Positions 49,140 through 64,000 of a DNA stretch of 64,000 bases are shown piece after piece. A model generated the notes under the pieces. The model searched no databases, was not told the DNA's origin, and saw only the letters and a list, made by a program, of their open reading frames with translations. How positions within the stretch are numbered: the first letter of the stretch is position 1; each line of letters opens with the position of its first letter. The position numbers and the translations under genes are program-made. The DNA is taken from contig OY761556.1 in NCBI GenBank assembly GCA_963664705.1, forward strand, positions 4,864,001 through 4,928,000. The letters run 5' to 3'. The stretch is from Acidobacteriota bacterium (lineage in GTDB: Bacteria; Acidobacteriota; UBA6911).

Positions 49140-50405
49140 ATGTATCTCAGGTTGGACAGCCGTTCCAGGAATTCCGGGCAAATCCGAGACAGGATTGTGC
49201 GGACACTCTTCACAGGGTTTATGGGGCTTGCGCTTCTGGTGAGCTGCAGGACGCTTTCCGCACAGGAACCGAATCCGGGACCGGGGCCAATCTATGGTCC
49301 GCATTCGCCACTGGGTTCAAGGGAATGCACGGACTGCCACAAGCGGGCAGTTTCAACCACCCTGCGCTGCCTGGCAGCCAAAACGGATCTGTGTGAATTT
49401 TGTCACCAGGTTCCTCCGGAAGGAGGTCTTGCCCAACAGGTTCGTTCATCGGAGCCACTTTGCTTCAAGTGCCACAAAAGAGATCAATTCAAAGCCAACT
49501 ATGCTCATGGTCCTTTCATTGCTGGAGCTTGCGTTACCTGTCACGATCCGCATGGTGGAGAGGTTCCGGGAATGCTGCGCATTGCGGGTTCACAATTGTG
49601 CCTGGATTGCCATAAGGATTTCAGCGCGCGTTTTTCAAATGCGAGTTTCCGGCATAAGGCCGCTGTCAATAATTGCCTGGATTGTCATTCCCCACACATG
49701 TCCGACCAACGACACCTGCTGAAGTCAGCGCCCCCCGGGCTTTGTGGTAAATGTCACCAGGGAATCATCGGAGATCTTCAAACTGCCGCAGTCATACATT
49801 CACCAGCCAGGGAAACGCCTTCCTGTATGAACTGCCACGATCCGCACATGGCAAAGGAAAAAAGTCTGCTCCTAGCGGACAGGTTAGACAGTTGTCTGAA
49901 GTGCCATGACAAACCGGTTAAAGGCGCTAAAGAAGAATTCGCGGATATGAAGAAACTGCTGGAAGCAAATCCGTATCCGCACGGACCGATCCAAAGCAGA
50001 GACTGTTCGACATGCCACAACCCGCACAGTTCGTCCTATTCCCGACTATTGACGAACCAATACGCTCCGGGCTTTTATGCTCCTTTTTTCATTTCAAATT
50101 ACAGCCTCTGTTTCCGCTGCCACGATGCCGTGCTGGCTACCGAAGAGCATACAACCAGTACCACGGAGTTCCGCGACGGCGATCGCAATCTTCATTATGT
50201 TCACGTCAGCAAGGCATCTCACGGAAGGACCTGCCGTTCGTGTCATGAGGTTCATGCAAGCTCGGGCCAGAAGCACATCGCGAAAACCGTCCCCTTTGGA
50301 AATTGGGAACTCCCGGTTCAATACGAAAAAACTGAAGATGGAGGCACCTGTACGCCGGGCTGCCATACTGTGCAGAAATACAGCCGCCAGCAGGGCAAGC
50401 AGTAA
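49140..50405 (+). CDS. Periplasmic multiheme cytochrome c (12 CxxCH + 1 variant), paralog of the upstream gene
   Basis: 12 CxxCH plus CTPGCH; shares C-terminal FYAPF..NY.LCF.CH..FR.G..NLHY.HV..GRTCR.CH. Confidence 0.9.
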   Translation: MYLRLDSRSRNSGQIRDRIVRTLFTGFMGLALLVSCRTLSAQEPNPGPGPIYGPHSPLGSRECTDCHKRAVSTTLRCLAAKTDLCEFCHQVPPEGGLAQQVRSSEPLCFKCHKRDQFKANYAHGPFIAGACVTCHDPHGGEVPGMLRIAGSQLCLDCHKDFSARFSNASFRHKAAVNNCLDCHSPHMSDQRHLLKSAPPGLCGKCHQGIIGDLQTAAVIHSPARETPSCMNCHDPHMAKEKSLLLADRLDSCLKCHDKPVKGAKEEFADMKKLLEANPYPHGPIQSRDCSTCHNPHSSSYSRLLTNQYAPGFYAPFFISNYSLCFRCHDAVLATEEHTTSTTEFRDGDRNLHYVHVSKASHGRTCRSCHEVHASSGQKHIAKTVPFGNWELPVQYEKTEDGGTCTPGCHTVQKYSRQQGKQ

Positions 50406-50670
50406 ATCACCGGTTGACCACTTACATTCTGTGACCTGGGTGTAAAGAAAACAAAACAACCTGTTTTTCATTCCCTGCTGAATAATCCCGATGCGTACGC
50501 GGCTGGATTTCAGCAGCGTATCCATCCACTAAATATTACATTATAAATAACTTAATCTGGAAAATCCGATTTCCTGACAGTCATTACGGCCGAGGCAATC
50601 CCTTCCAGAGCTGCAGGATTGCATTTTTATATGAATATGATTCCCTATTTCATGATATAGTTTCCGTCCA

Positions 50671-50687
50671 ATGAAAATTGATTTCAT
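50671..50687. promoter_or_regulatory. Fur-family-like palindromic operator
   Basis: atgaaa-attga-tttcat in an AT-rich region ~25 nt upstream of a GGAGG/GTG start; a second related palindrome at 50631-50653. Confidence 0.4.
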
Positions 50688-50712
50688 ATTTAGGCTATAC
50701 GGAGGCTATTTC

Positions 50713-51573
50713 GTGAGATATCTTTGCGCTCTAGCAATATTAGTTGGAATACCCCTTCAACCAATTTTTGCCCAGCAGAATCCCTATTTTGTGACCTATG
50801 ATCACCGGATGGAGGAGCCGCAGAATCTGGAAATCTCAACGCAGAGCACGGTGGGGATCCCGAAGGGCGATTTGCCTGGATACCTGGGCCAGCTCCTGGA
50901 GATTGAATATGGCGTGACGCCGCGCTGGTCCTCTGCGCTATATCTGGAAGGAGCCTCGCAGAGGCACGACAGCACCGTATTCACCGGATTCCGCCTGGAA
51001 AACCGTTTCAAGGTGCTGAAGGGAGAACACCGGATCAATCCTGTGCTCTATTTCGAATACGAGAACATTAACGAGGCAAGCCGGATCAAGAAGGAGATTT
51101 TGGGACATGCGGAGCCTTCCAACGAATCACTTCAGGAACCGAAACAGGAAACCGCGCGCGAGCTCGAGGCGAAACTTATCTTGTCCTCCGATATCAAGAG
51201 CTGGAATGTGGCCGGGAATTTTATCGTTGAAAAAAACCTGTCTGAAGACGAAGGATTTGAGTTTGGCTATACGTTGGGGATGTTTCATCCGCTGTCCGGC
51301 AAATCCGCCTGGTGCCGACTCTGCCAGAGCATTTCAGTCGGCGCTGAACTCTATGGCGGCCTTGGAAGCACCGATCAATTCGGTTTCAAGGACACGGCCC
51401 ATTATATTGCACCTCTGCTCGTCTGGAACTTTGCGGCCAATCAAGCGGTCAAGGTATCGCCTGGCTTTGGCTTGACGACCGTCAGCGATCGCATGCTCCT
51501 GCGCTTCGGCTACGTCTATGAGTTGAATGGCTTTGGTCACAGAGTTTCAAAGCTGTTTCGATCCAGGAGTTGA
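50713..51573 (+). CDS. Putative outer-membrane beta-barrel protein
   Basis: GGAGG RBS + GTG; signal peptide; EIEYGVT, NPVLYFEYE, AELYGGLG; alternating beta-strands. Confidence 0.65.
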   Translation: MRYLCALAILVGIPLQPIFAQQNPYFVTYDHRMEEPQNLEISTQSTVGIPKGDLPGYLGQLLEIEYGVTPRWSSALYLEGASQRHDSTVFTGFRLENRFKVLKGEHRINPVLYFEYENINEASRIKKEILGHAEPSNESLQEPKQETARELEAKLILSSDIKSWNVAGNFIVEKNLSEDEGFEFGYTLGMFHPLSGKSAWCRLCQSISVGAELYGGLGSTDQFGFKDTAHYIAPLLVWNFAANQAVKVSPGFGLTTVSDRMLLRFGYVYELNGFGHRVSKLFRSRS

Positions 51574-51577
51574 AGCC

Positions 51578-51781
51578 ATGAGCCGCGACATGGATCTCCG
51601 CGAAGTATACGGCGCCAAAACCCAATCCCGATCCTGCACAAATGAAATGCGCTGCTGTTGCGGCAGTCTGTTGGCGCGTCTCGTACCCGGCGGGGTGGAA
51701 CTAAAGTGTCGGCGCTGTAAACGAACCATCTTTTTGAACCTGAAATCTCCGGAGAAAACCGGTTCTTTTCCGAACGTCTGA
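51578..51781 (+). CDS. Small zinc-ribbon protein (Mu Com-like)
   Basis: EMRCCCGSLLARLVPGGVELKCRRCKR; AGGAG RBS. Confidence 0.65.
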   Translation: MSRDMDLREVYGAKTQSRSCTNEMRCCCGSLLARLVPGGVELKCRRCKRTIFLNLKSPEKTGSFPNV

Positions 51782-51893
51782 CCCGTGCAGACGCCTCCAA
51801 TGAACATAACCAGAGCGGCCAGCGGTCAAACAGCACCCAGAGCCCAGGCCACCGCCACGATCCGTGATTTGTGGCGGAGGAAAGGACTCTCTG

Positions 51894-52766
51894 ATGACCG
51901 CAGTACGTTTGTTGCATTTCATATTCCGTCCGGCTCTGTTGAGCCTGGCACTCGTCTGTGCCGTTCCCTTCCCTGCCCGCGCTGATAACGCGAATCCATT
52001 TGCCCTGGAGCGAGACGAAAAGATCCGGGACAATCTCTTCCTCCTGGAAGAGGCATACAACCAGGAACCCGGCGTCATTCAGCATATTCAGGCATTCAGT
52101 CTCAATCCTCAAACCAGGAGCTGGAACTACAGCTTCACGGAAGAATGGCCTGTTCCCACCGATCGGCATCAACTGTCTTTGACCATTCCGGCAATGAATC
52201 AGGGACAAGCAAGCTCCAGCGCGGTCGGGGATTTGCTCATCAATTATCGCCTTCAGGCAATTGGAGCTGGAGGTACGGGCCGCCGGATCGCAATGGCTCC
52301 AAGGCTATCGCTGGTCTTGCCTACGGGAAAATACCAGAACGGCAACGGACGCGGAGGCACCGGGTTTCAACTTAATCTGCCAATCAGCCTGGAAATCGGA
52401 GACCACTTCGTTGCGCACTGGAATGCCGGATTTACGACGACTCCATCCGCAAAATCTCCGGCCGGCTATTCGGCCTTCGCCCTCGATATCAATGCCGGAG
52501 CAGCCCTGATATGGCTTCCGCTCTCCTGGGCGAACCCGCTCATCGAGGTTGTGCATCTGTCGTCACAGGAGATCAGAGAGGACGGGACTCGCCCCCGAAG
52601 CTCCACAGCAATCATCAATCCCGGAATTCGCTTCGCGCTCAACCATCGCTCGGGACTGCAGATAGTTCCCGGGATATCCATACCGGTGCAATTGGACCGC
52701 ACTGGAGCCAAAGCTTCTGTTCTGTTCTATCTCTCCCTTGAACATCCGCTGGGGAGACGGCGCTGA
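51894..52766 (+). CDS. Putative outer-membrane transporter (MetA-pathway/phenol-degradation barrel-like)
   Basis: Signal peptide; DNLFLLEEAYNQEPGVIQH, GDLLINYR, LPTG, YLSLEH. Confidence 0.7.
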   Translation: MTAVRLLHFIFRPALLSLALVCAVPFPARADNANPFALERDEKIRDNLFLLEEAYNQEPGVIQHIQAFSLNPQTRSWNYSFTEEWPVPTDRHQLSLTIPAMNQGQASSSAVGDLLINYRLQAIGAGGTGRRIAMAPRLSLVLPTGKYQNGNGRGGTGFQLNLPISLEIGDHFVAHWNAGFTTTPSAKSPAGYSAFALDINAGAALIWLPLSWANPLIEVVHLSSQEIREDGTRPRSSTAIINPGIRFALNHRSGLQIVPGISIPVQLDRTGAKASVLFYLSLEHPLGRRR

Positions 52767-52785
52767 TCCATTATTTCTTCTCTGT

Positions 52786-53742
52786 TTAAATCTGAGGCGG
52801 TTGGCCTGCACGGCTGCCCTCCGCCGGAAACAAAAACGAGGCAACCACGGAAAGGAAAAGCAATGCCGCCACGATCCCCAGGGACAACGCAATGGGCACA
52901 TGGAAAAAGCCGGCGATCAGCATCTTGATTCCTACGAACGCCAGCACAAGTCCAAGGCCGACCTTCAGGAATCTGAATTTCCCAATCATCCCGGCCAAAA
53001 GGAAATACAGTGCGCGCAATCCGAGAATGGCAAAAATATTGGATGTGAACACAATAAAGGGATCCGTCGTGACAGCAAAAATCGCGGGAATGGAGTCTAC
53101 CGCAAAGACGATGTCGGTGGCTTCAATGGCCAAAAGCACCATCAGCAGGGGGGTGGCATATCGTCGCCCCGCTTCCTTCACGGTGAACCTGGCGCCCCGA
53201 TAGTCCGGAACGGACGGGATAATCCGGCGCGATAGACGGAGTACGATATTACGCTCCGGGCTTATATTGCCTCCCTCTCGTGCTGCCAATAGTTTGATGC
53301 CGGTGAAAACCAGGAACGCTCCGAAGATATAGATCACCCACTGGAACTGCTGGATGAGTGCCGCGCCGGCCATAATAAAGCCCGCGCGCATGAGGAGCGC
53401 TCCGACGATGCCCCAGAAAAGCACTCTGTGCTGAAGCTGTGTCGGAACGGCAAAATATGAAAACAAAACCAGGAAAACAAAAAGATTGTCGACCGAAAGA
53501 GCCTTCTCGATCAGGTACCCGGTCAGAAATTCGAGTGCGCGGTCCTGTCCAAACCAGAAATAAACGCCCGCGTTAAACAAAATTGCAAGTCCGATCCAAA
53601 CCACCGACCAGGCAAGCGCTTCACGCATTTTTACGGCGTGTGCATTGCGGTGGAACACCCCGAGATCCAGGGCGAGCATCGCAAGAACGAAAATAGTGAA
53701 CCCTATCCACATCGCGGGCGTTCCGATACTCACAGCCACCAT
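52786..53742 (-). CDS. terC: TerC/Alx family metal-homeostasis membrane protein
   Basis: GYLIEKALSVDNLFVF, QHRVLFWG, DIVFAVDSIPA, SNIFAILGLRALY. Confidence 0.92.
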   Translation of the reverse strand: MVAVSIGTPAMWIGFTIFVLAMLALDLGVFHRNAHAVKMREALAWSVVWIGLAILFNAGVYFWFGQDRALEFLTGYLIEKALSVDNLFVFLVLFSYFAVPTQLQHRVLFWGIVGALLMRAGFIMAGAALIQQFQWVIYIFGAFLVFTGIKLLAAREGGNISPERNIVLRLSRRIIPSVPDYRGARFTVKEAGRRYATPLLMVLLAIEATDIVFAVDSIPAIFAVTTDPFIVFTSNIFAILGLRALYFLLAGMIGKFRFLKVGLGLVLAFVGIKMLIAGFFHVPIALSLGIVAALLFLSVVASFLFPAEGSRAGQPPQI

Positions 53743-53779
53743 TTCAATTCTCCCGACAAAGCTATGGCACGCATCCGGT

Positions 53780-54049
53780 TCACAGCGCACTCCCGGCAAC
53801 TCGCGGCTTTCCGTGAGTTGGCACCGATTTCTGTCGATAGCGCTTCGGGGCTTGTGACGGCCAATGTACCTCCAATTCGAGATCCACCTCTCCGAGACAG
53901 ATCTCCAATTCCTCTTCAACCACTACATGATCCGGGATCTGGATTGACTTGCTTCCGATCTTGACCGGCTTGCCCACGGATATCTGCAGCGCAAGATAGT
54001 GAAGCCGTCGCGCCAGGGCATAGCGGCTCAATTTCCGTTTTGTTTTCAT
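53780..54049 (-). CDS. Amphi-Trp domain-like small protein
   Basis: LSR..LA..L..LA, then beta-rich ...ELELEVHW; GGAG RBS. Confidence 0.6.
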   Translation of the reverse strand: MKTKRKLSRYALARRLHYLALQISVGKPVKIGSKSIQIPDHVVVEEELEICLGEVDLELEVHWPSQAPKRYRQKSVPTHGKPRVAGSAL

Positions 54050-54136
54050 ACGGCCATCTCCATTTGCAAAGCACCTCTATTGTCAGAATACGGAACGGGC
54101 CTTCACTTAGACAAACAGATAAAATAACCTTATTTA

Positions 54137-54151
54137 TTCGATTTAATCGAA
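54137..54151. promoter_or_regulatory. LysR/NhaR-type operator between divergent genes
   Basis: Perfect palindrome ttcgatt-t-aatcgaa (T-N11-A). Confidence 0.6.
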
Positions 54152-54164
54152 GTATAGTTCCGTA

Positions 54165-55103
54165 ATGGAATGGATCAACTACCACCATCTGCTCTATTTC
54201 TGGATCGTATCCCGGGAAGGGAATCTTGCACGTGCGAGCGCAGAGTTGCGCCTCGCCCAATCAACCGTGAGCAAGCAGATCCATCAGCTCGAGGCGATGC
54301 TTGGCCACAAGCTTTTCTCCAAAACCGGTCGCCGGCTGGTGTTGACCGAAAGCGGCCGCGTGGTCTTCCGGTATGCCGAAGAGATTTTCGGTCTTGGCCG
54401 GGAGATGGTCGATACCCTCGGAGATCGCCCGGTCGGAAAGCCGCTTCGGGTAACAGTCGGAGTTGCTGACATTGTCCCCAAACTGGTGGCCGAGCACGTT
54501 CTGGCTCCCGCCCTAAAGTTGACGGGGCAAGTGCGGCTGATATGCAGGGAGGACAAACCGGATCGCCTGCTGGCCAATCTGGCTCTGCATGAATTGGATG
54601 TTATTTTGACGGATGCTCCGGCCAGTCCGCAGGTAAACATCCGCGCATTCAGCCATTTGCTGGGATCTTCAGAGGTCGCCTTTTTCGGCCGATCGGAGCT
54701 CGTGTCGAGATATCGTCGCAATTTCCCGGCCTCGCTGAATAGCGCACCGGTCCTCCTCCCGACGGAGAACACCATGATGCGCAGGTCCCTGGAGCAGTGG
54801 TTTGAATCGGAAGGGATCCGGCCGGATGTTGTCGGAGAATTTGAAGACAGTGCGCTTCTAAACGTATTTGGGTTTCGAGGGGCAGGGCTGTTCCCGGCAG
54901 CCTCGGTGATCTCCAGGGAGCTCGAAAAGCAATACAAAGTCCGTTGCGCCGGCATCGTAGCGGGCGTTCAAGAACGGCTCTATGCGGTCACGGTGGAACG
55001 ACGGATAAAACATCCGACAGTCGCCGCGATCATCAAGGCAGCCGAGACTTGGTTTAAGCCGGCCCAGGGCGGAAGCCGGGAAATAGTTTCCACGCATCCT
55101 TAG
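54165..55103 (+). CDS. nhaR: LysR-family transcriptional activator NhaR
   Basis: MEWINYHHLLYFW, YAEEIF.LG.E, GVADIVPK, GEFEDSALL, ERRIKHP. Confidence 0.88.
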   Translation: MEWINYHHLLYFWIVSREGNLARASAELRLAQSTVSKQIHQLEAMLGHKLFSKTGRRLVLTESGRVVFRYAEEIFGLGREMVDTLGDRPVGKPLRVTVGVADIVPKLVAEHVLAPALKLTGQVRLICREDKPDRLLANLALHELDVILTDAPASPQVNIRAFSHLLGSSEVAFFGRSELVSRYRRNFPASLNSAPVLLPTENTMMRRSLEQWFESEGIRPDVVGEFEDSALLNVFGFRGAGLFPAASVISRELEKQYKVRCAGIVAGVQERLYAVTVERRIKHPTVAAIIKAAETWFKPAQGGSREIVSTHP

Positions 55104-55344
55104 GCACTTCAGAAGATAGCCTGAATTTTCGAATGGCAACGCTTCCGTTGCAAAAATGCCCCCGCTTGTCGGGTGTCCCGCCGCGGTCTTAATCCACACG
55201 AAAGGCTGGCTTTACACTCCTTGTCGTATAACTGTCGCATTCCTGACATTCCCGTTCTCAGGGGCTGCGGATACCCTTCAGCTCAACGCGGTGGCGTTCC
55301 TGCCACACGCAATGGACGACCGCATGGTCCGAAGGGAGGATGTT

Positions 55345-56400
55345 TTGAAGAAACAGGATATCTTGCGCGCCTGGGGGCGCATTCTTGTTGGGAAAGCACC
55401 ATCCATGTCGATTGAGATAACGCGACGATGTCCCCTGTCGTGTCCCGGCTGCTATGCTTATCAGAACTCCCACCTCGCCAGGGAGGGTTCCCTGACCAAT
55501 GCCCGGGAATTTGAGGGAGAACAGCTTATCCGGGGAGTTCTCTCTCTGGTTGACCGGCATCGGCCGCTGCACCTGTCCATCGTAGGAGGCGAGCCGCTGG
55601 TCCGTCAGCGGGAGATAACAGCGCTCCTGCCGGAGTTGGAAAGAAGGAAGATCCATACGCAGATTGTGACAAGCGCGGTCAGTCCTATTCCGATCGAATG
55701 GAGCCATTTCCGCCACCTCACCCTGGTCGTCTCCGTTGACGGCCTGCCTTCAGAACATGACCGGCGCCGGGCCCCTGCAACCTACAACCGGATCCTAAAC
55801 CACATGCGCGGACACTTGATTACGGTCCATTGCACGATTACGCGACAGATGACTCAACGGCCGGGTTATCTTCGGGAATTTCTCGATTTCTGGTCGGAAA
55901 GGGATGAAGTTCGCAAGATCTGGATGAGCTTATATACTCCCCAAATCGGCGAATCGCGTCCGGAGCTAATTCCTCAGGATCTGCGAAAAAGAGTGATCGA
56001 CGAACTTACTATACTCAATGACGAATTCGCAAAACTTGAACTCCCGCCGGGCTTGCTGCAGGCTTACAGGACGCCACCAGCCGGGCCACGTCATTGCGTA
56101 TTCGCTCTGACCACGCAAACAATTTCGTCCGACCTTACGACCAGGGTAATCCCTTGTCAGCTTGGAGGAAGGCCCGACTGCCATCAGTGCGGTTGCATTG
56201 CGGCGGCTGGCATGCTAGCGATCAGTCGGCACCGCCTACCGGGTGGGATCCAGGCCGGCACCATTTTCACTTTATCCCATGCTTTCGGGCTTCAACTGAG
56301 AAAATGGCTCGACAATACCGCTCTATCGCGGCCGATCATGGAAGGCAATCCAATTCCGCGTATTGGTCAGAACGCGGAAATCCGAATCGATGGCGCCTGA
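55345..56400 (+). CDS. Radical SAM protein with C-terminal Cys cluster (HpnH-like architecture)
   Basis: CPLSCPGC, GGEPL, SVDG, C-terminal C..PC....DCHQCGC; GGAGG RBS before TTG 55345. Confidence 0.85.
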   Translation: MKKQDILRAWGRILVGKAPSMSIEITRRCPLSCPGCYAYQNSHLAREGSLTNAREFEGEQLIRGVLSLVDRHRPLHLSIVGGEPLVRQREITALLPELERRKIHTQIVTSAVSPIPIEWSHFRHLTLVVSVDGLPSEHDRRRAPATYNRILNHMRGHLITVHCTITRQMTQRPGYLREFLDFWSERDEVRKIWMSLYTPQIGESRPELIPQDLRKRVIDELTILNDEFAKLELPPGLLQAYRTPPAGPRHCVFALTTQTISSDLTTRVIPCQLGGRPDCHQCGCIAAAGMLAISRHRLPGGIQAGTIFTLSHAFGLQLRKWLDNTALSRPIMEGNPIPRIGQNAEIRIDGA

Positions 56401-56435
56401 ATCGGTCCGAAGATCAATGGGTGGTGGAGCGTGCC

Positions 56436-57329
56436 CTAGAATACGCGCTTTACGGAGGTCCCAACTTTCGAAACAAAGCTGCCGGTCTTCCGGGCCGCGA
56501 GATCCAGCGCCTGTCTGACCGCACCCAGCTCCGGTTCATCCTGGGGCCGGTTTATCGCAAGAACCGGAAGCTCGCTTGAACGAACGGGCATCTCCGCCAT
56601 TACCAGTTCGGATTGCAGGGTATGCGAATGCGGAAGTGAATCGAAAAATGCAGAGGCCTGAGAACTCTGGATCATTTCTCTTGAACCAGCATCGGAGGAC
56701 ACCACAGGTTGCGGCTCCTCAGGAATTGATTGCCGCAGGCTTACAGGGTGCTTGGATGCTGCTGCATTGACGGGTTGAGTTCTGACTTTTGCCGCTGGCT
56801 TTTCCAGTCGTGCATCGGCAATCAGCGGCACAGTATTGGGAGGTATTTCGACAGCCCGTGAAACCACCGCAGGCTTCGAAGACTCCAGGGAATGGGATTT
56901 CCCTCTTATCCCAAAATGAGTTGTGAGGATGGCTCCCGCTGCCAGACCTAAAATCAAGGTGCATACCGACAGGAAAGACCTCGTCCACACCGGCCGCACC
57001 CATTGCCGGGTCGGGTTGACCGGAATCGTCTCCAACTCCTGTCCGGAGGTCATGATGACTGCCCCCTCCGCAACCTGAGCTTCATGATCGGAATCAGGCG
57101 AGGACTCCGATCCAAGCAGTTGGGCGAAATCCGTTTCGAAAGCTACCGCAATCGCTCTCAACGTTTCAAAAGAGGCGCTGCTTGCAGTCTCGGCTCTCTG
57201 TATGGTCCGGGCACTGACGCCGGCAATTTCCGCAAGTTGTTCCTGGGTCCAGCCACGCTGGATGCGCAGAATTTTGATTTTGGGGCCATCAGGGTTGAGC
57301 TTGCCTCGCATCGGATCTCCCAATGTCAC
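56436..57329 (-). CDS. XRE-family HTH protein with TM helix and low-complexity C-terminus
   Basis: IKILRIQRGWTQEQLAEIAGVSARTIQRAE; hydrophobic FLSVCTLILGLAAGAILT. Confidence 0.75.
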   Translation of the reverse strand: MTLGDPMRGKLNPDGPKIKILRIQRGWTQEQLAEIAGVSARTIQRAETASSASFETLRAIAVAFETDFAQLLGSESSPDSDHEAQVAEGAVIMTSGQELETIPVNPTRQWVRPVWTRSFLSVCTLILGLAAGAILTTHFGIRGKSHSLESSKPAVVSRAVEIPPNTVPLIADARLEKPAAKVRTQPVNAAASKHPVSLRQSIPEEPQPVVSSDAGSREMIQSSQASAFFDSLPHSHTLQSELVMAEMPVRSSELPVLAINRPQDEPELGAVRQALDLAARKTGSFVSKVGTSVKRVF

Positions 57330-57466: not shown

Positions 57467-57703
57467 TTAGTTCATTTTTTGGATAGAGGATATTTCCACG
57501 TTTGCGGAATTCAGCAGAGCGCGTACCCGCGGTTCATCGCACCAATCGAAGCGCAGCGCCATCCCGCAGTCGCTCGAAAACTCACGGGGTGTGGGAATTA
57601 ATTTGACCGAAAATCCATCCTTCAGCAGAAGCTTTTCCGAACGCAATGCCGCCGAACTTGTGTAAAACAGAATCACACCAAATATTTTGATCTCTTGAGG
57701 CAT
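57467..57703 (-). CDS. DUF3343 family protein (putative Se/S carrier)
   Basis: F.TSSAALRSEKLL..IPTPREFSSDCGMALRF. Confidence 0.88.
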   Translation of the reverse strand: MPQEIKIFGVILFYTSSAALRSEKLLLKDGFSVKLIPTPREFSSDCGMALRFDWCDEPRVRALLNSANVEISSIQKMN

Positions 57704-57709
57704 AGTGCA

Positions 57710-58852
57710 CTATTGAAGAATTTTATTTACCGCGTCGACCGCCAGATCCACTTCTTCCTTCGTTGCCTCCAATCCCAAGGCTAAACGAACAGTACCGTCA
57801 GGAAATGTCCCGATCGTACGATGAGCCGCCGGCGCACAGTGTAAGCCAACACGGCTCAGGATTCCAAATTCATCGTCCAGACGCAATCCAATTTCGGAGA
57901 CGCGATGCCGGGCTGCAGTGAAGGAAACAATCGATGTACGCCGAGTCACATCCGCAGGGCCGTAGATGTCGACTCCATCCATATTCGCCAACCCTTCAAT
58001 GAGCCGCCGGGTCAACTCAATTTCCCTTGCGCGAATCGCCTCAATTCCTCTTTCCATTATGTACTGAAGGCCGGCGCCAAGTCCGGCAATTCCCGGGCCG
58101 TTCAAAGTACCGCTTTCAAATTTATCCGGCAAATCTTCAGGCTGTATCTCGAATTCAGAACGGCTCCCGGTGCCTCCGCGCCAGAGGGGCTTCATCTCTT
58201 CAGGATGCGCTGCGCTTCCGATTATCAATCCGCCGGTTCCCTGCGGCCCCTGCAATCCCTTATGCCCGGTGAAGGCCAAGAGATCGATGCCCATGGCGCC
58301 CATATCGATGGGCACAACACCCGCCGTTTGCGCCGCATCGACCAGCAACAATGCGCCTGCTTGATGGACTATCCTCGCAATCTCATGAATCGGAAGAATG
58401 GTGCCAACGACATTGCTGGCATGAGTAACCACCACCATTCGGGTAGAGGGACGCAATGCACTGGCAAAAGACTCCGGAGCCACAGAGCCATCCCGCGCAC
58501 AGGATATCACCGTTAGTTCGATCCCTTTTTTTTCGAGATCCCGCAGCGGCCTCATGACGGCATTGTGTTCCATCGAGCTTGTGATGACATGATCTCCCGG
58601 TCCTAAAATCCCGTAGAGACACAGATTGATTGCCTGGGTAGCGTTGGCTGTGAAGATTACTTTCAGGGGATCCGGGGCATTGAAGAAATTCGCCAGAGTT
58701 TCGCGCACGTTGTAGACGATGCGTCCGGCCTCGATGGACAAACGGTGCCCGGCACGACCCGGATTGCCGCCCCTCACCAGGAAATCTGCCATCGCATGGA
58801 GAACAGCGGGCGGTTTCGGCCAGGAGGTTGCGGCATGATCGAGATATATCAT
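57710..58852 (-). CDS. Cysteine desulfurase/selenocysteine lyase-like class V aminotransferase
   Basis: MIYLDHAATSWPKP, NPGR.GH, DAAQTAG, FTGHKGLQGPQG, RVGLHCAP. Confidence 0.92.
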   Translation of the reverse strand: MIYLDHAATSWPKPPAVLHAMADFLVRGGNPGRAGHRLSIEAGRIVYNVRETLANFFNAPDPLKVIFTANATQAINLCLYGILGPGDHVITSSMEHNAVMRPLRDLEKKGIELTVISCARDGSVAPESFASALRPSTRMVVVTHASNVVGTILPIHEIARIVHQAGALLLVDAAQTAGVVPIDMGAMGIDLLAFTGHKGLQGPQGTGGLIIGSAAHPEEMKPLWRGGTGSRSEFEIQPEDLPDKFESGTLNGPGIAGLGAGLQYIMERGIEAIRAREIELTRRLIEGLANMDGVDIYGPADVTRRTSIVSFTAARHRVSEIGLRLDDEFGILSRVGLHCAPAAHRTIGTFPDGTVRLALGLEATKEEVDLAVDAVNKILQ

Positions 58853-58858
58853 GGGCCT

Positions 58859-59581
58859 TTATTCCAGACAATTTTGCGACATCAAGGTCGCTTCATAGAA
58901 GTTCACACCCAGATAGCACCAAGTGCCATTTCGTCGGTACTGCGCCAGACCGCGTTGGGTGCGGCCGTCAAGGTAAGAGAACAGGCCCTCGGAAAAAGCA
59001 TCATACTCGGCGGGCTGGAAAGGCCGTTCGACCCTGGCCCTGCGTCGGAGAGTAAATCCTTTCCTTTCGAACAGCGGCATGACTCTCAACGGAAAGGCCC
59101 AATCGGTAATCAGCATATATAGCCGTCCGCCGGGCATGAGATAGCGTTCGGCTTTCGCGGCCAGTCTGCGCAGGTATTTGAGCCCATCAGGTCCCCCATA
59201 CCTGGCTGCGAGAATCGGTTTCGGAGCAGGAAGCTGCGGAAGGGTTGTGATGATAATGTCAAACCGTTCCCCTCGGACCGGAGCAAAGAGGGATCCGACG
59301 CGTCCATCAACCCGCGTGATGCCATTCCGGGCGGCATTCCGGAGTGCGCAGGTTACGGCGGCGGGATCAATATCGGTAAGGACGATTTCTCCCGCTCCGC
59401 GCACCGCAGTGGAAAGACCATAGCCTCCCGCCCCGCAGCCGAGGTCAAGAACTCTGTCGCCGCGCCGAACGCGTATCGCCGCCGCAACCGTATCCGCATA
59501 CGGATCCGGATGATGCACCGGCGAGTCCACCGATAGGGAAATTGGGCTGTGGGGAGGAACCTGCAACTTAAATTTTTTCAT
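58859..59581 (-). CDS. Class I SAM methyltransferase (HemK-like fold)
   Basis: VLDLGCGAG, TDID, GSLF, FDIIITTLPQLP, YGGPDG; start at 59581 or 59608. Confidence 0.8.
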   Translation of the reverse strand: MKKFKLQVPPHSPISLSVDSPVHHPDPYADTVAAAIRVRRGDRVLDLGCGAGGYGLSTAVRGAGEIVLTDIDPAAVTCALRNAARNGITRVDGRVGSLFAPVRGERFDIIITTLPQLPAPKPILAARYGGPDGLKYLRRLAAKAERYLMPGGRLYMLITDWAFPLRVMPLFERKGFTLRRRARVERPFQPAEYDAFSEGLFSYLDGRTQRGLAQYRRNGTWCYLGVNFYEATLMSQNCLE

Positions 59582-59628
59582 AAAAAAATCTCTTTGATAA
59601 AAAAACACTCAATCGAATTACATAATGG

Positions 59629-60735
59629 CTAGGCTGTCGTTTTTTCTCTCATCAGCAAACCAAGAGTGACGCAAACAAGGATGCCGACGATCACCGCAAC
59701 CGGACCATAGGGACTGGGACCGGCCGGAGAGCTTGCCAGATTGAAATTGTGGGCAAATCCTGCGCCGACAAGCATGCCTATGACAAAGACGGCGGCATCG
59801 CCATCCCCTTCGCCGGACAAAAAGACCTGGCGGCCGGGACATCCTCCCGCCAGAGTAAATGCCAGGCCGGACAAAAGCATTCCGGCAAAATTCCACAATC
59901 CAAAGGTGTGCGCTATCGGCTGCTCCGCAAAACCGGGCTTAAATTGCCCCAACGCCAGGTTGGTTACAAATGAGGCCAGAACCAAAGCGATCACTCCGCT
60001 GAACAGATTCACATTTTTCAGGAGGATCAGATCCCGCACGGCTCCGACCGTACAGAATCGGCTGCGCTGCGCCAGAAACCCGATCAGCAAACCGGCAGCC
60101 AGGGAAATCCATATTCCCGCATGTTGGCTGCCGGGACCTTTCGCCGACAGAAATATCGGACCGATGGGTTTACCTTCCGGATCCCGCCCCAGTTGCGGCG
60201 CAAGGATCAATAAAAGCAGCAGGCCGATCATCAGAGCAGGCATTACCCATCCGAGCACATTAGAAGCCGGATGCGATCGCCCCAAGCTAAAGCCCATACG
60301 CAACAGGACTACGCCCACTGCAACCCCCGCTGCCAAACCGAGAATTCCCAGAAGTGCATTCCAGTCGCCGCCGCCCAGACGCAGAAAAGCGCGCCAGGGA
60401 CAACCCAGAAACACGAGAGCTCCGATCATGGAAAGAGCGCCCAGAAGAAATTTGATGAGCGGAGAAGATCCGGTGCGTGGACGGAATTCACGAAAGATCA
60501 ATGCCGCAACAAGAGATCCCAATATAAAACCGATGATCTCGGGCCGTATATATTGAACGGTGGCCGCGCGGTGAAAACCCAGGGCTCCCGCAATATCCCG
60601 GCTGAAACAGGCAACACAAACACCCATATTGGCAGGATTGCCCAGCTTGACCAAAATGGGAGCCAGCACACCCACCGCTAGCCCCGTGACAATTATTCCC
60701 CCGCGGGAAGACAGGAAACGGCCAATTGCGGACAT
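59629..60735 (-). CDS. yedE: YedE-family putative selenium-metabolism transporter (YeeE/YedE)
   Basis: GNPANMGVCVACFSRD, YIRPEI, FLGCPWR, QRSRFC, GGCPGRQ; AAGGAA RBS. Confidence 0.92.
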   Translation of the reverse strand: MSAIGRFLSSRGGIIVTGLAVGVLAPILVKLGNPANMGVCVACFSRDIAGALGFHRAATVQYIRPEIIGFILGSLVAALIFREFRPRTGSSPLIKFLLGALSMIGALVFLGCPWRAFLRLGGGDWNALLGILGLAAGVAVGVVLLRMGFSLGRSHPASNVLGWVMPALMIGLLLLLILAPQLGRDPEGKPIGPIFLSAKGPGSQHAGIWISLAAGLLIGFLAQRSRFCTVGAVRDLILLKNVNLFSGVIALVLASFVTNLALGQFKPGFAEQPIAHTFGLWNFAGMLLSGLAFTLAGGCPGRQVFLSGEGDGDAAVFVIGMLVGAGFAHNFNLASSPAGPSPYGPVAVIVGILVCVTLGLLMREKTTA

Positions 60736-60821
60736 TATATTTATTCCTTTCGTTTCAACTTGGATTACATTGCCAGGAACATATTTTCACTATCGCTATT
60801 GTCGCTGTTGCCAGGCCTACC

Positions 60822-61667
60822 CTATGAAATAGCATCTTGAGTAATTGGCAAATACCCGACCGCATCGGACCGGCATCGCGTGCAATGATGCATCTGCCGG
60901 ACATAGGGACTCGCCCGCTGTCTCAACCATCTCATCTTTTCCTCACTGGGAGCCGCTATGCCCGCCATTTCTGTTCCAGCCAGAGGGATCAACGGCAGAA
61001 AATTCATCAAGTCCACCTGGAGGTTGCCCAGGTTCTTGGCAAGAAACGGCAAATGGTGTTCATTGATTCCAGGAACAACAACAGTGTTGATCTTGACGAT
61101 GATTCCGGCAGCTTTCAAACGACCGATGGCTTCGAGCTGCGTAGATATCAGGCCATGAGCCGCTTCCATACCTCTGAAGATTCTTCCGGCAATCGAAATC
61201 CACGGATGCAGCCGCGCCCCGATGAAGGGATCGATTGCATTGACCGTGATCGTTACATAGCCGACGTTCAAGGCGGACAAGTGCGGGATAGAGCCCATCA
61301 CATTCAATCCATTGGTGGAGACGCACAAAGCAATGTCCGGATTTTTCCTGCGAATAAGCTCAAAGGTCTTCAAGGTGCATTCCGGATCACAGAAGGCATC
61401 TCCCGGTCCCGCCACCGCCGCTACCGAGATGTGCGGCGTTTCTCGGAGTACCTGTTCCAGCCGCTCGGATGCTTCTTCCGGGCTCAACACGCCGGTGCAG
61501 ACACCGGGTCGGTTTTCATTGGGACAATCATGATCGCGGCGGCAATACGCACATTGGATATTGCAGGACGCAGCTACAGGCAGATGCACCCGCCCATATT
61601 TCCCTTTGGCCCCGGCATAAAAGCAGGGATGAATTTTCTGTTGCGTAGGCACGATGGCAGATGACAT
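60822..61667 (-). CDS. nifB: NifB-family radical SAM (SAM domain only)
   Basis: HPC, CNIQCAYC, ENRP, AGPG, TITVN and CTRCRSDAVG are all present; no NifX-like domain. Confidence 0.85.
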   Translation of the reverse strand: MSSAIVPTQQKIHPCFYAGAKGKYGRVHLPVAASCNIQCAYCRRDHDCPNENRPGVCTGVLSPEEASERLEQVLRETPHISVAAVAGPGDAFCDPECTLKTFELIRRKNPDIALCVSTNGLNVMGSIPHLSALNVGYVTITVNAIDPFIGARLHPWISIAGRIFRGMEAAHGLISTQLEAIGRLKAAGIIVKINTVVVPGINEHHLPFLAKNLGNLQVDLMNFLPLIPLAGTEMAGIAAPSEEKMRWLRQRASPYVRQMHHCTRCRSDAVGYLPITQDAIS

Positions 61668-62471
61668 TTACGCTTTCCTCCCAGGGCGCCCGATGTGAAT
61701 GGCGTCACGAGGGCAAAGGGATGTGCAGTCGCAGCAGTTTGTGCAGTTGACCTCTGCAGGGCGAGTTCCCATTTCACAAACTTGAAGGCATTGATTGCAG
61801 CCGTCGCATTTGTCGTCTTTGTAAACCTTAAACAGGGAAAGCGATTTGATAATTTCCAATGCGCCGCCCGTGGGACAGGCAAACCGGCACCAGGCGTTGG
61901 CAAGGAGCAGTCCCAGCAGGACGAATCCCAAAACAAAAACGGACCGGATCAGCCAGAGCGGATGCGCGTTCTTGAACGTAAACGCGAACGAAGCGAAGAA
62001 CTCTCCGATTCGAATCGGCACAGCTTCACGCGGTTGTCCATAAGGCAGCCAAATGCAGAGCGCCACCAGCAGCCCGATATACTTAAAATAGGGTGCGGTC
62101 TTCGTAAAACCGTTTCTGATTCGCAGCTTTGCCGACGATGCCATTCCAAGCAGTTGATGGAGTAATCCTCCGGGACAGAACCAACTGCAAAAAGCCCTGC
62201 CAAAAACCAGCGCGGAGATAGGTAGCAGGAGCCAAAAGCCCCAGAACATCGTGAGAAGCCTGCCATGACAGGTAATGACCGGGCAGTTCTGGCAGCTTAC
62301 GTACGGCACTATGAAAGGGCAGCGAAAAATGCCGTAAAAGGACCACTGCCCAAGAACAGCCAGCGAAGCGCACTGAGCAACCCGACGCCACCGGGTAACC
62401 GGCGCTGTTTTGCTTTCCTCCCCTGACAATTCGTTCATCACTGCAAGCTGAGCCACGTTGACCTTAGACAT
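61668..62471 (-). CDS. Membrane polyferredoxin (NapH/MauN-like 4Fe-4S binding protein)
   Basis: CP...SCQNCP..TC, FCSWFCP, WCRFACP, CDGCNQCLQVC, CTNCCDCTSLCP. Confidence 0.85.
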   Translation of the reverse strand: MSKVNVAQLAVMNELSGEESKTAPVTRWRRVAQCASLAVLGQWSFYGIFRCPFIVPYVSCQNCPVITCHGRLLTMFWGFWLLLPISALVFGRAFCSWFCPGGLLHQLLGMASSAKLRIRNGFTKTAPYFKYIGLLVALCIWLPYGQPREAVPIRIGEFFASFAFTFKNAHPLWLIRSVFVLGFVLLGLLLANAWCRFACPTGGALEIIKSLSLFKVYKDDKCDGCNQCLQVCEMGTRPAEVNCTNCCDCTSLCPRDAIHIGRPGRKA

Positions 62472-63333
62472 CTTTCACCCCCAGTTTCTCAACCAAACGA
62501 CGCCCTTCATCCGACATGGCGGGGATAAAGCCTGCGGACTGAAAGAATCCCTGTCCTTCCTCCGACAAAATGAAATCCACAAAATGATTGGCCAGTGCCT
62601 TGTCGCGTGCGTTTTTCATCACGCCAATGGTGAAGGTCAGCGGACCGGCAGGGAAAAATTCCTCAGGGATTGGAAGAACCTCTACTTTTCCGCTGAAGAG
62701 AGGCATCCGCGTCAACCTGCATTCAACCACGGACACATCCCCTTTTCCCTTTACCAGATCCTCCATCGTGCGCTGGACGCAGCTGCCTTTGATTACAGCA
62801 TTTTTCATGGCCTGATCCAGAACTCCAGCCTTTTTCAGCAGCCCGGTGACCGCTTCTCCGCCCGGCGCTGAGGCATCGGGAGCAAGAATTACCCTGACCC
62901 CCTGCTTTGCCAGGTCCTGTATAGCTGAAATGCCCGCGGGGTTGCCTTTCGGCGTGACCAACACATAGGAAGTAAAGCAGAGCGGCTTAAAGAACGACAT
63001 TTTGTTCGCGCTGCGCAGCTTCTGGGCCAACGCGAGAACTCTTCCCGCAAATACCTCAGTGGTTGCGCTGCCCAAAAGCGATTTGCCTAAGGCGGCGGCA
63101 AAAGCACCGGTAAAAGCGATCTCAATTCCGGTCTTTGTCCGGTATTGCTTGTTTGCAGGAATAAAGGCTTCCGCCAGTCCACCACAAGCCCAGACCTGAA
63201 GCGTATTCTGCCCAAACGATAGTGATTCCGAACCGGCTGCGGCAACCGTTGCGCCTGCTGCGGCCCCGGTGGCGACAGTCAAAAAGGCCCTGCGGTTCAA
63301 GAGGGATTGCGGTACTGTTTCAGTCATATGCAT
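62464..63333 (-). CDS. ModA-like substrate-binding protein with Tat signal
   Basis: NRRAFL Tat motif; LQVWACGGLAEAF; PKGNPAGI...DLA; FILSEEGQGFF..GF. Confidence 0.8.
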   Translation of the reverse strand: MHMTETVPQSLLNRRAFLTVATGAAAGATVAAAGSESLSFGQNTLQVWACGGLAEAFIPANKQYRTKTGIEIAFTGAFAAALGKSLLGSATTEVFAGRVLALAQKLRSANKMSFFKPLCFTSYVLVTPKGNPAGISAIQDLAKQGVRVILAPDASAPGGEAVTGLLKKAGVLDQAMKNAVIKGSCVQRTMEDLVKGKGDVSVVECRLTRMPLFSGKVEVLPIPEEFFPAGPLTFTIGVMKNARDKALANHFVDFILSEEGQGFFQSAGFIPAMSDEGRRLVEKLGVKDV

Positions 63334-63394
63334 TCTCGCCTTTGAAAAGGTCGCGTAATCGAGTCTTAATTAATGGTGTTGAGACGCGTTTTAT

Positions 63395-63553
63395 CTAAAC
63401 CTGCGCATCTCCAAGTTCAGCCCGGACCATATTGCTGGTTTGAGAAAGGAACGATGCTAATTCGGAATGCCCGTGAGATCGGCCCGCCCACAGATTCGTC
63501 CAACAACCCGGTCAGATGACGATCCTGTTTCACGTAAAGCCGAATACGTTCAT
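63395..63553 (-). other. Candidate leader ORF with two in-frame UGA codons (possible Sec)
   Basis: AAGGG-8nt-ATG; MNVFGFT*NRIVI*PGCWT...AQV-TAG; a hairpin follows each UGA. Confidence 0.3.
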
Positions 63554-63592
63554 TACGAAAGCCCTTGCGGATTCAATATAGTTAAGAAAATC

Positions 63593-63628
63593 CTTATACA
63601 TATATGCTATCTATATGTCAAATAGATA
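63593..63628 (-). promoter_or_regulatory. Sigma70 promoter of the selenium-associated operon with overlapping LysR-type palindrome
   Basis: Minus strand TTGACA(63616-21)-17nt-TATAAG(63593-98); palindrome tatctat-7-atagata (63608-63628) centred on the -35. Confidence 0.7.
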
Positions 63629-63701
63629 TATTTTAGGTTAATTATCGTTGTTTGAGAGAGCGAAACATCATTACTTTGCCGGTATTGTTTAACGAGGGAC
63701 C

Positions 63702-64000
63702 ATGGAACTGAGATATATCGAGATATTCTGCGCAGTGGTAGAACTGAAGAGCTTTTCCAAGGCCGCCCAGGCGTTGCATCTGACTCAACCGACGATCAGC
63801 GTGCATATCAAAGCCCTGGAAGACGAGTTTTCGACCAAGCTTCTGGACCGTCTTGGCAGAACGATCCTGCCGACCCAGGATGGCGAAATTCTTTACAGGT
63901 ATGCAAAAGAGATCGTCACTCTGAAAGAGAATGCGCGCAAGGCGATGGAAAGGGTCACCGGCACGGTGAGCGGCAAGCTTACTATCGGCGCAAGCACGAT
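63702..64000 (+). CDS. LysR-family regulator (selenium-metabolism-associated type by context), 3'-truncated
   Basis: Own translation: MELRYIEIFCAVVELKSFSKAAQALHLTQPTISVHIKALEDEFSTKLLDRLGR...GKLTIGAST; GAGGG RBS. Confidence 0.9.
   Translation, partial: MELRYIEIFCAVVELKSFSKAAQALHLTQPTISVHIKALEDEFSTKLLDRLGRTILPTQDGEILYRYAKEIVTLKENARKAMERVTGTVSGKLTIGAST

Follow-up and report, generated by a model that had tools for sequence, protein, structure and literature searches.

What does NifB, the radical S-adenosylmethionine (SAM) enzyme that makes the L-type [8Fe-9S-C] cluster, do in a putative operon that holds no nitrogenase gene and runs on into genes of selenium metabolism? The question is posed by a 64,000-nucleotide stretch of an Acidobacteriota genome (contig OY761556.1, positions 4,864,001 to 4,928,000), here called the window, in which seven co-oriented minus-strand genes lead from a ModA-fold substrate-binding protein (SBP) with a twin-arginine translocation (Tat) signal, through a membrane polyferredoxin and NifB, to four accessory genes. 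A preliminary description of the window took all seven for one selenium-handling system, and its gene order, gene families, and close spacing proved correct, the intervals being -8, 0, 86, 20, 6, and 6 nt, 5' to 3'. Our analysis shows that the conserved module is the trio of SBP, polyferredoxin, and NifB, and that it is loosely tied to the known YedE/TusA/DUF3343 regulon. The reading that we favor, at a probability of roughly 45%, is that SBP and polyferredoxin form a selenium-scavenging oxidoreductase carrying an ordinary NifB-made L-type cluster, with YedE, the desulfurase, and DUF3343 as optional handlers.

Conservation of the trio was judged in two sets of loci. The first comprises the 80 best SBP loci in GTDB, mostly from Desulfobacterota, with some from Acidobacteriota, Phycisphaerae, SAR324, and Dissulfurispiraceae, and neighbors were counted in it within 10 kb of the module. 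The second comprises 80 host-associated metagenome loci, which are highly redundant and represent few species; their trios come from Campylobacter concisus, Megasphaera micronuciformis, Colibacter massiliensis, and uncultured Veillonella. The SBP family is tight, with 917 matches among 8,000 candidates scored. The polyferredoxin gene directly follows the SBP gene in all 75 GTDB loci with flanking sequence, the remaining five having 102 bp or less of downstream DNA, and in 76 of 77 host-associated loci. A NifB gene adjoins the pair in 56 of 73 testable GTDB loci (59 have a match, but three of these, full-length copies at a distance on the opposite strand, were excluded; seven have too little downstream DNA to be judged) and in 72 of 73 testable host-associated loci. 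Two gene orders occur in the GTDB set, SBP-polyferredoxin-NifB and, in nine loci, NifB-SBP-polyferredoxin. Moreover, all 31 long relatives recovered with the SBP profile at E ≤ 1e-40, from 7,994 candidates scored, are radical SAM NifB-SBP fusions; these share 44 to 99.8% identity and keep an internal twin-arginine motif, and in two of them (P0124 and P0307) the stretch that joins the NifB domain to this motif contains no Met.

The linkage of SBP, polyferredoxin, and NifB that the preliminary description had proposed is thus conserved, whereas its extension to YedE and to the operon as a unit is not. All seven window genes occur together in a single GTDB locus (L020). YedE lies within 10 kb in 8 of 80 loci, LysR in 6, single-domain DUF3343 in 1, and a close (high-identity) desulfurase near the module in 2. 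The methyltransferase was rejected as part of the system, since it is near the module in 1 of the 80. The SBP itself is rare and patchy, being found in 6 of 201 genomes of a Desulfobacterota sample (the center genome included), in 0 of 400 genomes of the window's own phylum, and in 5 of 29 genomes of its genus.

The pair of SBP and polyferredoxin depends on NifB. Fifty of the 80 genomes were tested, namely, all 17 without an adjacent NifB, all 9 with the second gene order, and 24 others picked for long contigs; NifB is encoded in 49. Sixteen of the 17 genomes without an adjacent copy encode one elsewhere (one of these 16 is a fragment, and two of the 17 loci have no upstream flank). For comparison, NifB is found in 40 of 195 phylum genomes that were sampled and have no SBP (Fisher p = 1e-9, a value overstated by kinship). 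The pair needs NifB, yet most genomes with NifB do without the pair, a pattern suggestive of a client and its maturase. Among 33 genomes with an adjacent NifB, 16 gave no nifH-like match, including the complete genome of Syntrophus buswellii, although, because most of the 16 are metagenome-assembled genomes, absence of nifH is unproven in most of them. Where sampled genomes that have no SBP encode a short NifB (10 cases), it is always part of a nif or nif-like cluster. At locus L113 (G147:C29), a short NifB is accompanied by TonB receptors, an ABC transporter, a methyltransferase-like gene, two nitrogenase-like subunits, and two NifH-like genes.

The window NifB (60822..61667, minus strand; 281 amino acids) is a stand-alone radical SAM protein without a NifX domain. 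It has all six NifB motifs (HPC, Cx3Cx2C, ExRP, AGPG, TxTxN, and Cx2CRxDAxG), as defined in a passage of Arragain et al. (PMC5715403), and matches the methanogen-type stand-alone SAM-domain structure 6Y1X at E = 6e-69. Against TIGR01290 it scores 284.7 bits over model positions 8 to 276 of 441, below the cutoff of 343.65 because the NifX domain is absent. The six motifs recur in 62 of 66 closed host-associated NifB open reading frames, and all 55 module NifBs compared (44 of type A and 11 of type B) share residues C15, H28, C35/39/42, C115, C262, and C265. In a midpoint-rooted tree of 88 NifB cores, several of them on long branches, the window copy falls among other module copies (13 rows, 100/99) and apart from the host's own nif NifB. 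A single clade (99/91) unites type A module NifBs with two-domain nif NifBs. The host has a full nifHDKENB cluster about 290 kb from the module; as that cluster includes its own two-domain NifB, 44% identical to the window's, the latter is a second copy unrelated to the host nitrogenase, and to that extent the preliminary description is supported.

An ordinary NifB bears directly on the preliminary model, in which the operon imports and mobilizes selenium or sulfur and feeds it into NifB for an unusual selenium-containing end-product cluster. No alignment column separates type A module NifBs from nif NifBs, and a nif NifB appears, from these genomes, able to replace the module's copy. Neither the SBP nor the polyferredoxin has an in-frame stop or TGA at an invariant Cys column in the 160 loci, and selenocysteine-for-cysteine substitution was rejected on that count. 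According to a passage of PMC13474568, NifB L-clusters do mature with selenite or tellurite in vitro, and the module's neighbors are desulfurase-YedE-DUF3343 in the window and desulfurase-YedE-TusA-DUF3343-selD in Megasphaera-type loci, as the model would have it. The uptake and mobilization genes are nonetheless not obligatory, the pair depends on NifB, and induction on selenium depletion, described below for Methanococcus, fits acquisition better than a selenium sink. We therefore disfavor this model and consider it improbable.

A second NifB subtype, type B, is without ExRP and always stands upstream of the SBP or is fused to it (L045, L047, L052, L056, L057, L073, L074, L077, and L083; fusions P0124 and P0301-P0330). 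Type B NifBs and the fusion, both devoid of ExRP, lie apart in the 88-core tree. A six-motif filter would discard type B, whose cluster may differ.

The fusions also help to decide which protein NifB serves. Should NifB itself catalyze with its own L-cluster, or serve a client encoded elsewhere, the polyferredoxin would be its electron donor and the SBP a cluster-free thiol binder or sensor. Such a role would agree with the catalysis reported in PMC13245594 for L-cluster-bound NifB with a ferredoxin donor, with the predicted cytoplasmic position of the polyferredoxin's ferredoxin domain, with archaeal SBPs that are not Tat substrates, and with double-cubane proteins encoded within 10 kb in 17 of 80 GTDB loci. 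However, NifB is fused to the SBP and not to the polyferredoxin in all 31 long relatives, and the pair keeps together where NifB leaves, so that we hold this alternative to be unlikely. The double-cubane protein, encoded in 37 of 50 genomes, was rejected as an obligatory client, as it is missing from the host genome and from its two closest module-bearing relatives. Co-oriented with the module, a double-cubane cluster protein and its activase are found in unrelated lineages (L067/L227, L212, L214, L095, L021, and L054).

The SBP gene (62464..63333, minus strand, PF13531; its start is possibly the second ATG, at 63327) encodes the predicted catalytic or binding subunit, with the Tat motif RRAFL. 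Its AlphaFold model (pLDDT, the predicted local distance difference test score, of 85.7) is predicted to adopt the periplasmic binding protein type II fold, the top Foldseek matches being ModA (TM score of 0.69 to 4KD5); ESM Atlas returned generic SBP and 4Fe-4S clusters. Fold and database label alike ("molybdate-binding protein") would suit an ordinary molybdate or tungstate binding protein beside a leftover nif gene. That explanation is largely refuted, and we give it next to no weight. The SBP falls below the modA cutoff TIGR01256 (41.4 versus 62.5 bits), and the AAASL, GASGSL, and VYxSD motifs are replaced: ModA AAASL, GASGSL, KDVKE, and VYFSD align to WsCGGl, GAFAAAL, GSCVQR, and VExRL. 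In ModA, the Ser/Ser/Tyr residues of these motifs are oxyanion ligands. The operon has no cognate permease or ATPase gene. Only 4 of 80 loci have ModB within 10 kb, and there it is never adjacent but lies on the opposite strand, at least some 4 kb off. Furthermore, the trio is intact in genomes without a nifH-like match, and in long relatives of the SBP, NifB is fused to it. The SBP thus shares the ModA fold of ModABC systems but differs in its Tat signal, in having no permease or ATPase, and in invariant Cys, Arg, and Glu residues where the oxyanion motifs would be. C50, C119, and C185 are invariant in the 120 matches listed; C50, R98, C185, E204, and R206 are invariant as far as the Methanococcales, C119 within the bacterial family.

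The polyferredoxin (61668..62471, minus strand, PF12801) has four predicted membrane helices and 16 invariant Cys residues, distributed over a loop after helix 1 (C51/60/63/68), two CxxxCP motifs, and two ferredoxin motifs. It resembles NapH/NosR/YccM-type polyferredoxins in the Fer4_5 CxxxCP and two ferredoxin motifs and differs from them in the extra four-Cys loop. It scores far below the NapH cutoff TIGR02163 (56.1 versus 213.05 bits), no nap cluster is among the recurring neighbors of the module, and Foldseek gave no solved structural match at E ≤ 0.001. An exported single-domain rhodanese-like protein recurs by the pair, often where NifB is not adjacent (L022, L032, L035, L040, L046, L069, L083, L085, and L093).

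What ties this module to selenium? In the window, the genes after NifB, all on the minus strand, encode a YedE family putative selenium transporter (59629..60735), a HemK-like class I methyltransferase (58859..59608, by family profile match), an EF2568-type cysteine desulfurase or selenocysteine lyase-like enzyme (57710..58852), and the putative selenium/sulfur carrier DUF3343 (57467..57703). YedE is of the MGxCxACF type that the preliminary description recognized (MGVCVACF; TIGR04112, 493.6 bits against a cutoff of 200). The desulfurase passes TIGR01977 (461 versus 377 bits) and fails the SclA model NF040779 (416.5 versus 525 bits), and DUF3343 matches PF11823 (72 versus 25 bits). The divergent LysR (63702..64000, plus strand; 296 amino acids, continuing beyond the window end) passes LysR_Sec_metab, NF040786 (312.9 versus 250 bits), and is thus of the selenium type. 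Elsewhere, YedE, the double-cubane protein, TusA, DUF3343, SelD, desulfurase, or LysR lies within 10 kb in 27 of 80 GTDB loci, in several layouts, and the eight YedE genes fall within 1.2 Mb where, by our estimate, roughly 0.1 would be expected. In the host-associated set, a desulfurase is near the module in 48 of 65 testable loci. In Veillonella- and Megasphaera-type loci, the module is followed by desulfurase and YedE genes (43 of 55 testable loci have YedE), to which those of the Megasphaera type add TusA, DUF3343, and selD; Campylobacter-type loci have neither YedE nor desulfurase. In the random sample, five of six SBP carriers have YedE (p = 0.09).

A second line of evidence comes from Archaea. 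Methanococcales encode an SBP (32% identity, E = 4e-43), and C50, R98, C185, E204, and R206 are present in 19 of 19 distant relatives. The accession number of this SBP is consecutive with that of a shortened polyferredoxin (29% identity, E = 2e-16). The SBP AVB75435.1 is probably MMJJ_00160 of Methanococcus maripaludis JJ. We found MMP0975/MMJJ_00160 in print only in PMC11097638, which reports that selenium depletion raises the mRNA of MMJJ_00160 55-fold and its protein 14.6-fold. The next two genes rise 14- and 8.5-fold, and YedE, TusA/D, DUF3343, and an HgdB-type dehydratase, families that also recur near the module in 27 of 80 GTDB loci, rise as well. According to the same paper, five transporter deletions did not resolve selenium-source use, and the probable ortholog was left undeleted because it was annotated as a molybdate transporter. 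The selenium link of the preliminary description is thus upheld by the recurrent neighbors and by this probable ortholog, but not at the level of whole genomes, as detailed below.

On the favored reading, the LysR_Se regulator would switch the operon on at low selenium. NifB would load an L-type cluster either onto the SBP before Tat export, where C50 and C185 would hold it across the cleft, or onto the membrane protein, and the polyferredoxin would move electrons across the membrane. A selenium anion bound by R98 and R206 (selenocyanate, selenite, or methylseleninate) would then be reduced to selenide, and YedE, the desulfurase-like enzyme, and DUF3343, where present, would hand selenium on to SelD. 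A two-Cys site in the SBP would suffice, as no more than two protein residues bind each L-type cluster in the archaeal proteins McrC and Mmp7: Cys/Cys, His/His, or Cys/His according to PMC13474568, with L-like clusters of two ligands each also described in PMC12176620. A bolder form of the proposal, to which we give distinctly less credence, is that the module represents a third class of NifB client, next to the nitrogenase family and the activation complex of methyl-coenzyme M reductase: a solute-binding-protein fold turned into a Tat-exported periplasmic enzyme with a carbide-centered 8Fe cluster between two Cys residues, wired by the polyferredoxin and stripping selenium from anions such as selenocyanate without ATP. 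Such a tentatively proposed enzyme would serve anaerobes as different as sulfate reducers and the commensals of the human mouth and gut.

Several points weigh against these proposals. We infer every chemical step. C50 and C185 are presumed to oppose each other across the cleft by the architecture of ModA. All fusions are of the NifB subtype without ExRP, unlike the window copy. nifH above cutoff is found in 14 of 17 genomes without an adjacent NifB versus 14 of 33 with one (p = 0.008), an association that is not significant once relatedness is considered (4 independent pairs, p = 0.5; underpowered); on the SBP tree of 46 genomes, adjacency changes nine times, with pairs averaging 1.7 in the predicted direction and 0.0 in the other. 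No selenium regulon gene lies within 10 kb in 53 of 80 GTDB loci. No enrichment is apparent for YedE (19 of 50 module genomes versus 89 of 201 in the baseline) or selD (47 of 50 versus 187 of 201), and selD co-occurrence was rejected as evidence, its baseline being 93%. As for Methanococcus, the equation of AVB75435.1 with MMJJ_00160 derives from identical annotation wording and gene order; the authors of PMC11097638 name the neighbors of MMJJ_00160 ModB and ModC, and the portion of their supplement on selenium-regulated genes does not name nifB. Finally, Methanococcales SBPs have a lipoprotein-type signal, no twin-arginine motif, and no C119, so that loading before Tat export cannot be general and the Tat argument holds for bacteria only.

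Some of this would also suit a sulfur substrate, such as thiosulfate, polysulfide, sulfite, or thiocyanate, for the same NifB-client oxidoreductase, the selenium genes being neighbors because sulfur and selenium trafficking genes cluster. Rhodanese-like genes lie within 10 kb in 13 of 80 GTDB loci and TusA in 10, the want of genome-wide enrichment for YedE and selD and the Campylobacter-type loci agree with it, and NifB-dependent methylthio-alkane reductase (MAR) enzymes cleave organic sulfur compounds, according to a passage of PMC13474568. On the other hand, the adjoining regulator is LysR_Sec_metab and not CysB, YedE is of the selenium type and not TsuA, and the probable archaeal ortholog answers selenium depletion. 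A sulfur substrate thus seems to us doubtful.

How does the module compare to known systems? Its NifB shares the six motifs with the NifB of nif, vnf, and anf systems, has a stand-alone SAM-domain architecture like that of methanogen NifB, and nests among bacterial NifBs; it differs in having no nifHDK or nifEN nearby and in its partners, a ModA-fold protein and a membrane polyferredoxin. No NifH or NifD/K homologue is linked to the module, and it is therefore not a nitrogenase-like cluster. Likewise close are the essential orphan NifB of methanogens and the activation complex of methyl-coenzyme M reductase (MCR), whose McrC and Mmp7 hold L-type clusters outside the nitrogenase fold with two ligands, the clusters probably being made by an unlinked NifB, going by PMC12176620 and PMC13474568. 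That complex is archaeal and cytoplasmic, whereas the module is mainly bacterial, is predicted to be membrane-bound and exported, has unrelated folds, and has its NifB linked or fused. MarBHDK, as described in PMC13474568, has a dedicated NifB paralogue, partly replaceable by nif NifB, that serves a chalcogen-freeing reductase; it is nitrogenase-fold, ATP driven, and cytoplasmic, and nothing homologous to H, D, or K is encoded in the module. The last four to five module genes and LysR are members of the cluster of YedE, YedF, SirA (TusA), DUF3343, selenocysteine lyase, LysR_Se, and 2-hydroxyglutaryl-CoA dehydratase of Lin et al. (2015; PMC5322559), in the relevant passages of which no radical SAM enzyme is mentioned, and the three-gene core mostly travels without that cluster. 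The accessory half is thus known. The three-gene core is not a member of the nitrogenase-like, ModABC, or NapH systems, and we did not find it in print, in a search whose coverage largely left out subscription papers and bioRxiv supplements. Its way of working may resemble that of MarB-MAR or NifB-McrC, with a client of unrelated fold. L-clusters are known only in proteins of the nitrogenase family and, since 2025, in the archaeal MCR activation complex. Were the favored reading correct, a small nitrogenase-free bacterial system that needs NifB would add another protein fold, and possibly another cell compartment, to those that house the cluster. Such a system would also explain why NifB is annotated in Campylobacter concisus and why Veillonella and Megasphaera have NifB-type genes, and it would offer a candidate for the use of scarce selenium sources by anaerobes. 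As a minimal acceptor of the L-cluster, it would be of use in engineering nitrogenase cofactors.

Upstream of the operon, the promoter noted in the preliminary description is present, as a consensus-type sequence, beside the divergent LysR (63593..63621, minus strand). This predicted sigma-70-type promoter, TTGACA-17-TATAAG, for which function is read from the hexamers, has its -35 box TTGACA at 63621-63616, a 17-nt spacer, and its -10 box TATAAG at 63598-63593. A promoter scanner missed it because it demands T at the last -10 position; the -35 hexamer is unchanged in 4 of 4 aligned relatives. An inverted repeat, ATCTAT-N7-ATAGAT, overlaps the predicted -35 box and is a possible LysR site. The leader of about 250 nt contains a short element, partly conserved in the four aligned relatives, at 63530-63544 on the minus strand. 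It has no Rfam match, the leader as a whole gave only a chance snoRNA match, and nothing reached the gathering score in the 20 kb around the locus.

An alginate-export-type porin gene follows LysR just past the window end (L001:10695-12182). Porin homologues adjoin the module in 6 of 80 GTDB loci, being directly upstream of NifB in L045, L052, and L056, and may thus serve as an outer-membrane entry. Some 6 kb from the SBP gene (L001:15007-16484) lie a DsrE-family gene and one with a molybdopterin-oxidoreductase domain; the two are not conserved, with homologues beside the module in 0 and 1 of 80 loci, respectively. On the other side, window positions 49140-57329 encode a multiheme cytochrome (paired CXXCH), two open reading frames without a Pfam match, TerC, a LysR, a radical SAM protein, and an XRE-type helix-turn-helix protein; we saw no tie between these genes and the module.

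The host genome has two tatC genes. It also has two selA genes, two selD genes (one with an in-frame TGA and one without), two long selenocysteine tRNA genes, and an odd 72-nt tRNA-like element that ARAGORN reads as UCA (coordinates of the sel and tRNA genes, G000:C1:3074543-3078309, 3461774-3463132, 2046792-2047721, 6559014-6559112, and 1625651-1625722), and a genome contamination of 6.18% makes the duplication of selA, selD, and the selenocysteine tRNA uncertain. About 1.5 Mb from the module (G000:C1:6416471-6419972), a NifH-NifD-like fusion, in a frame of 735 to 754 amino acids, and a second nitrogenase-like subunit lie within a cobalamin biosynthesis and uptake cluster.

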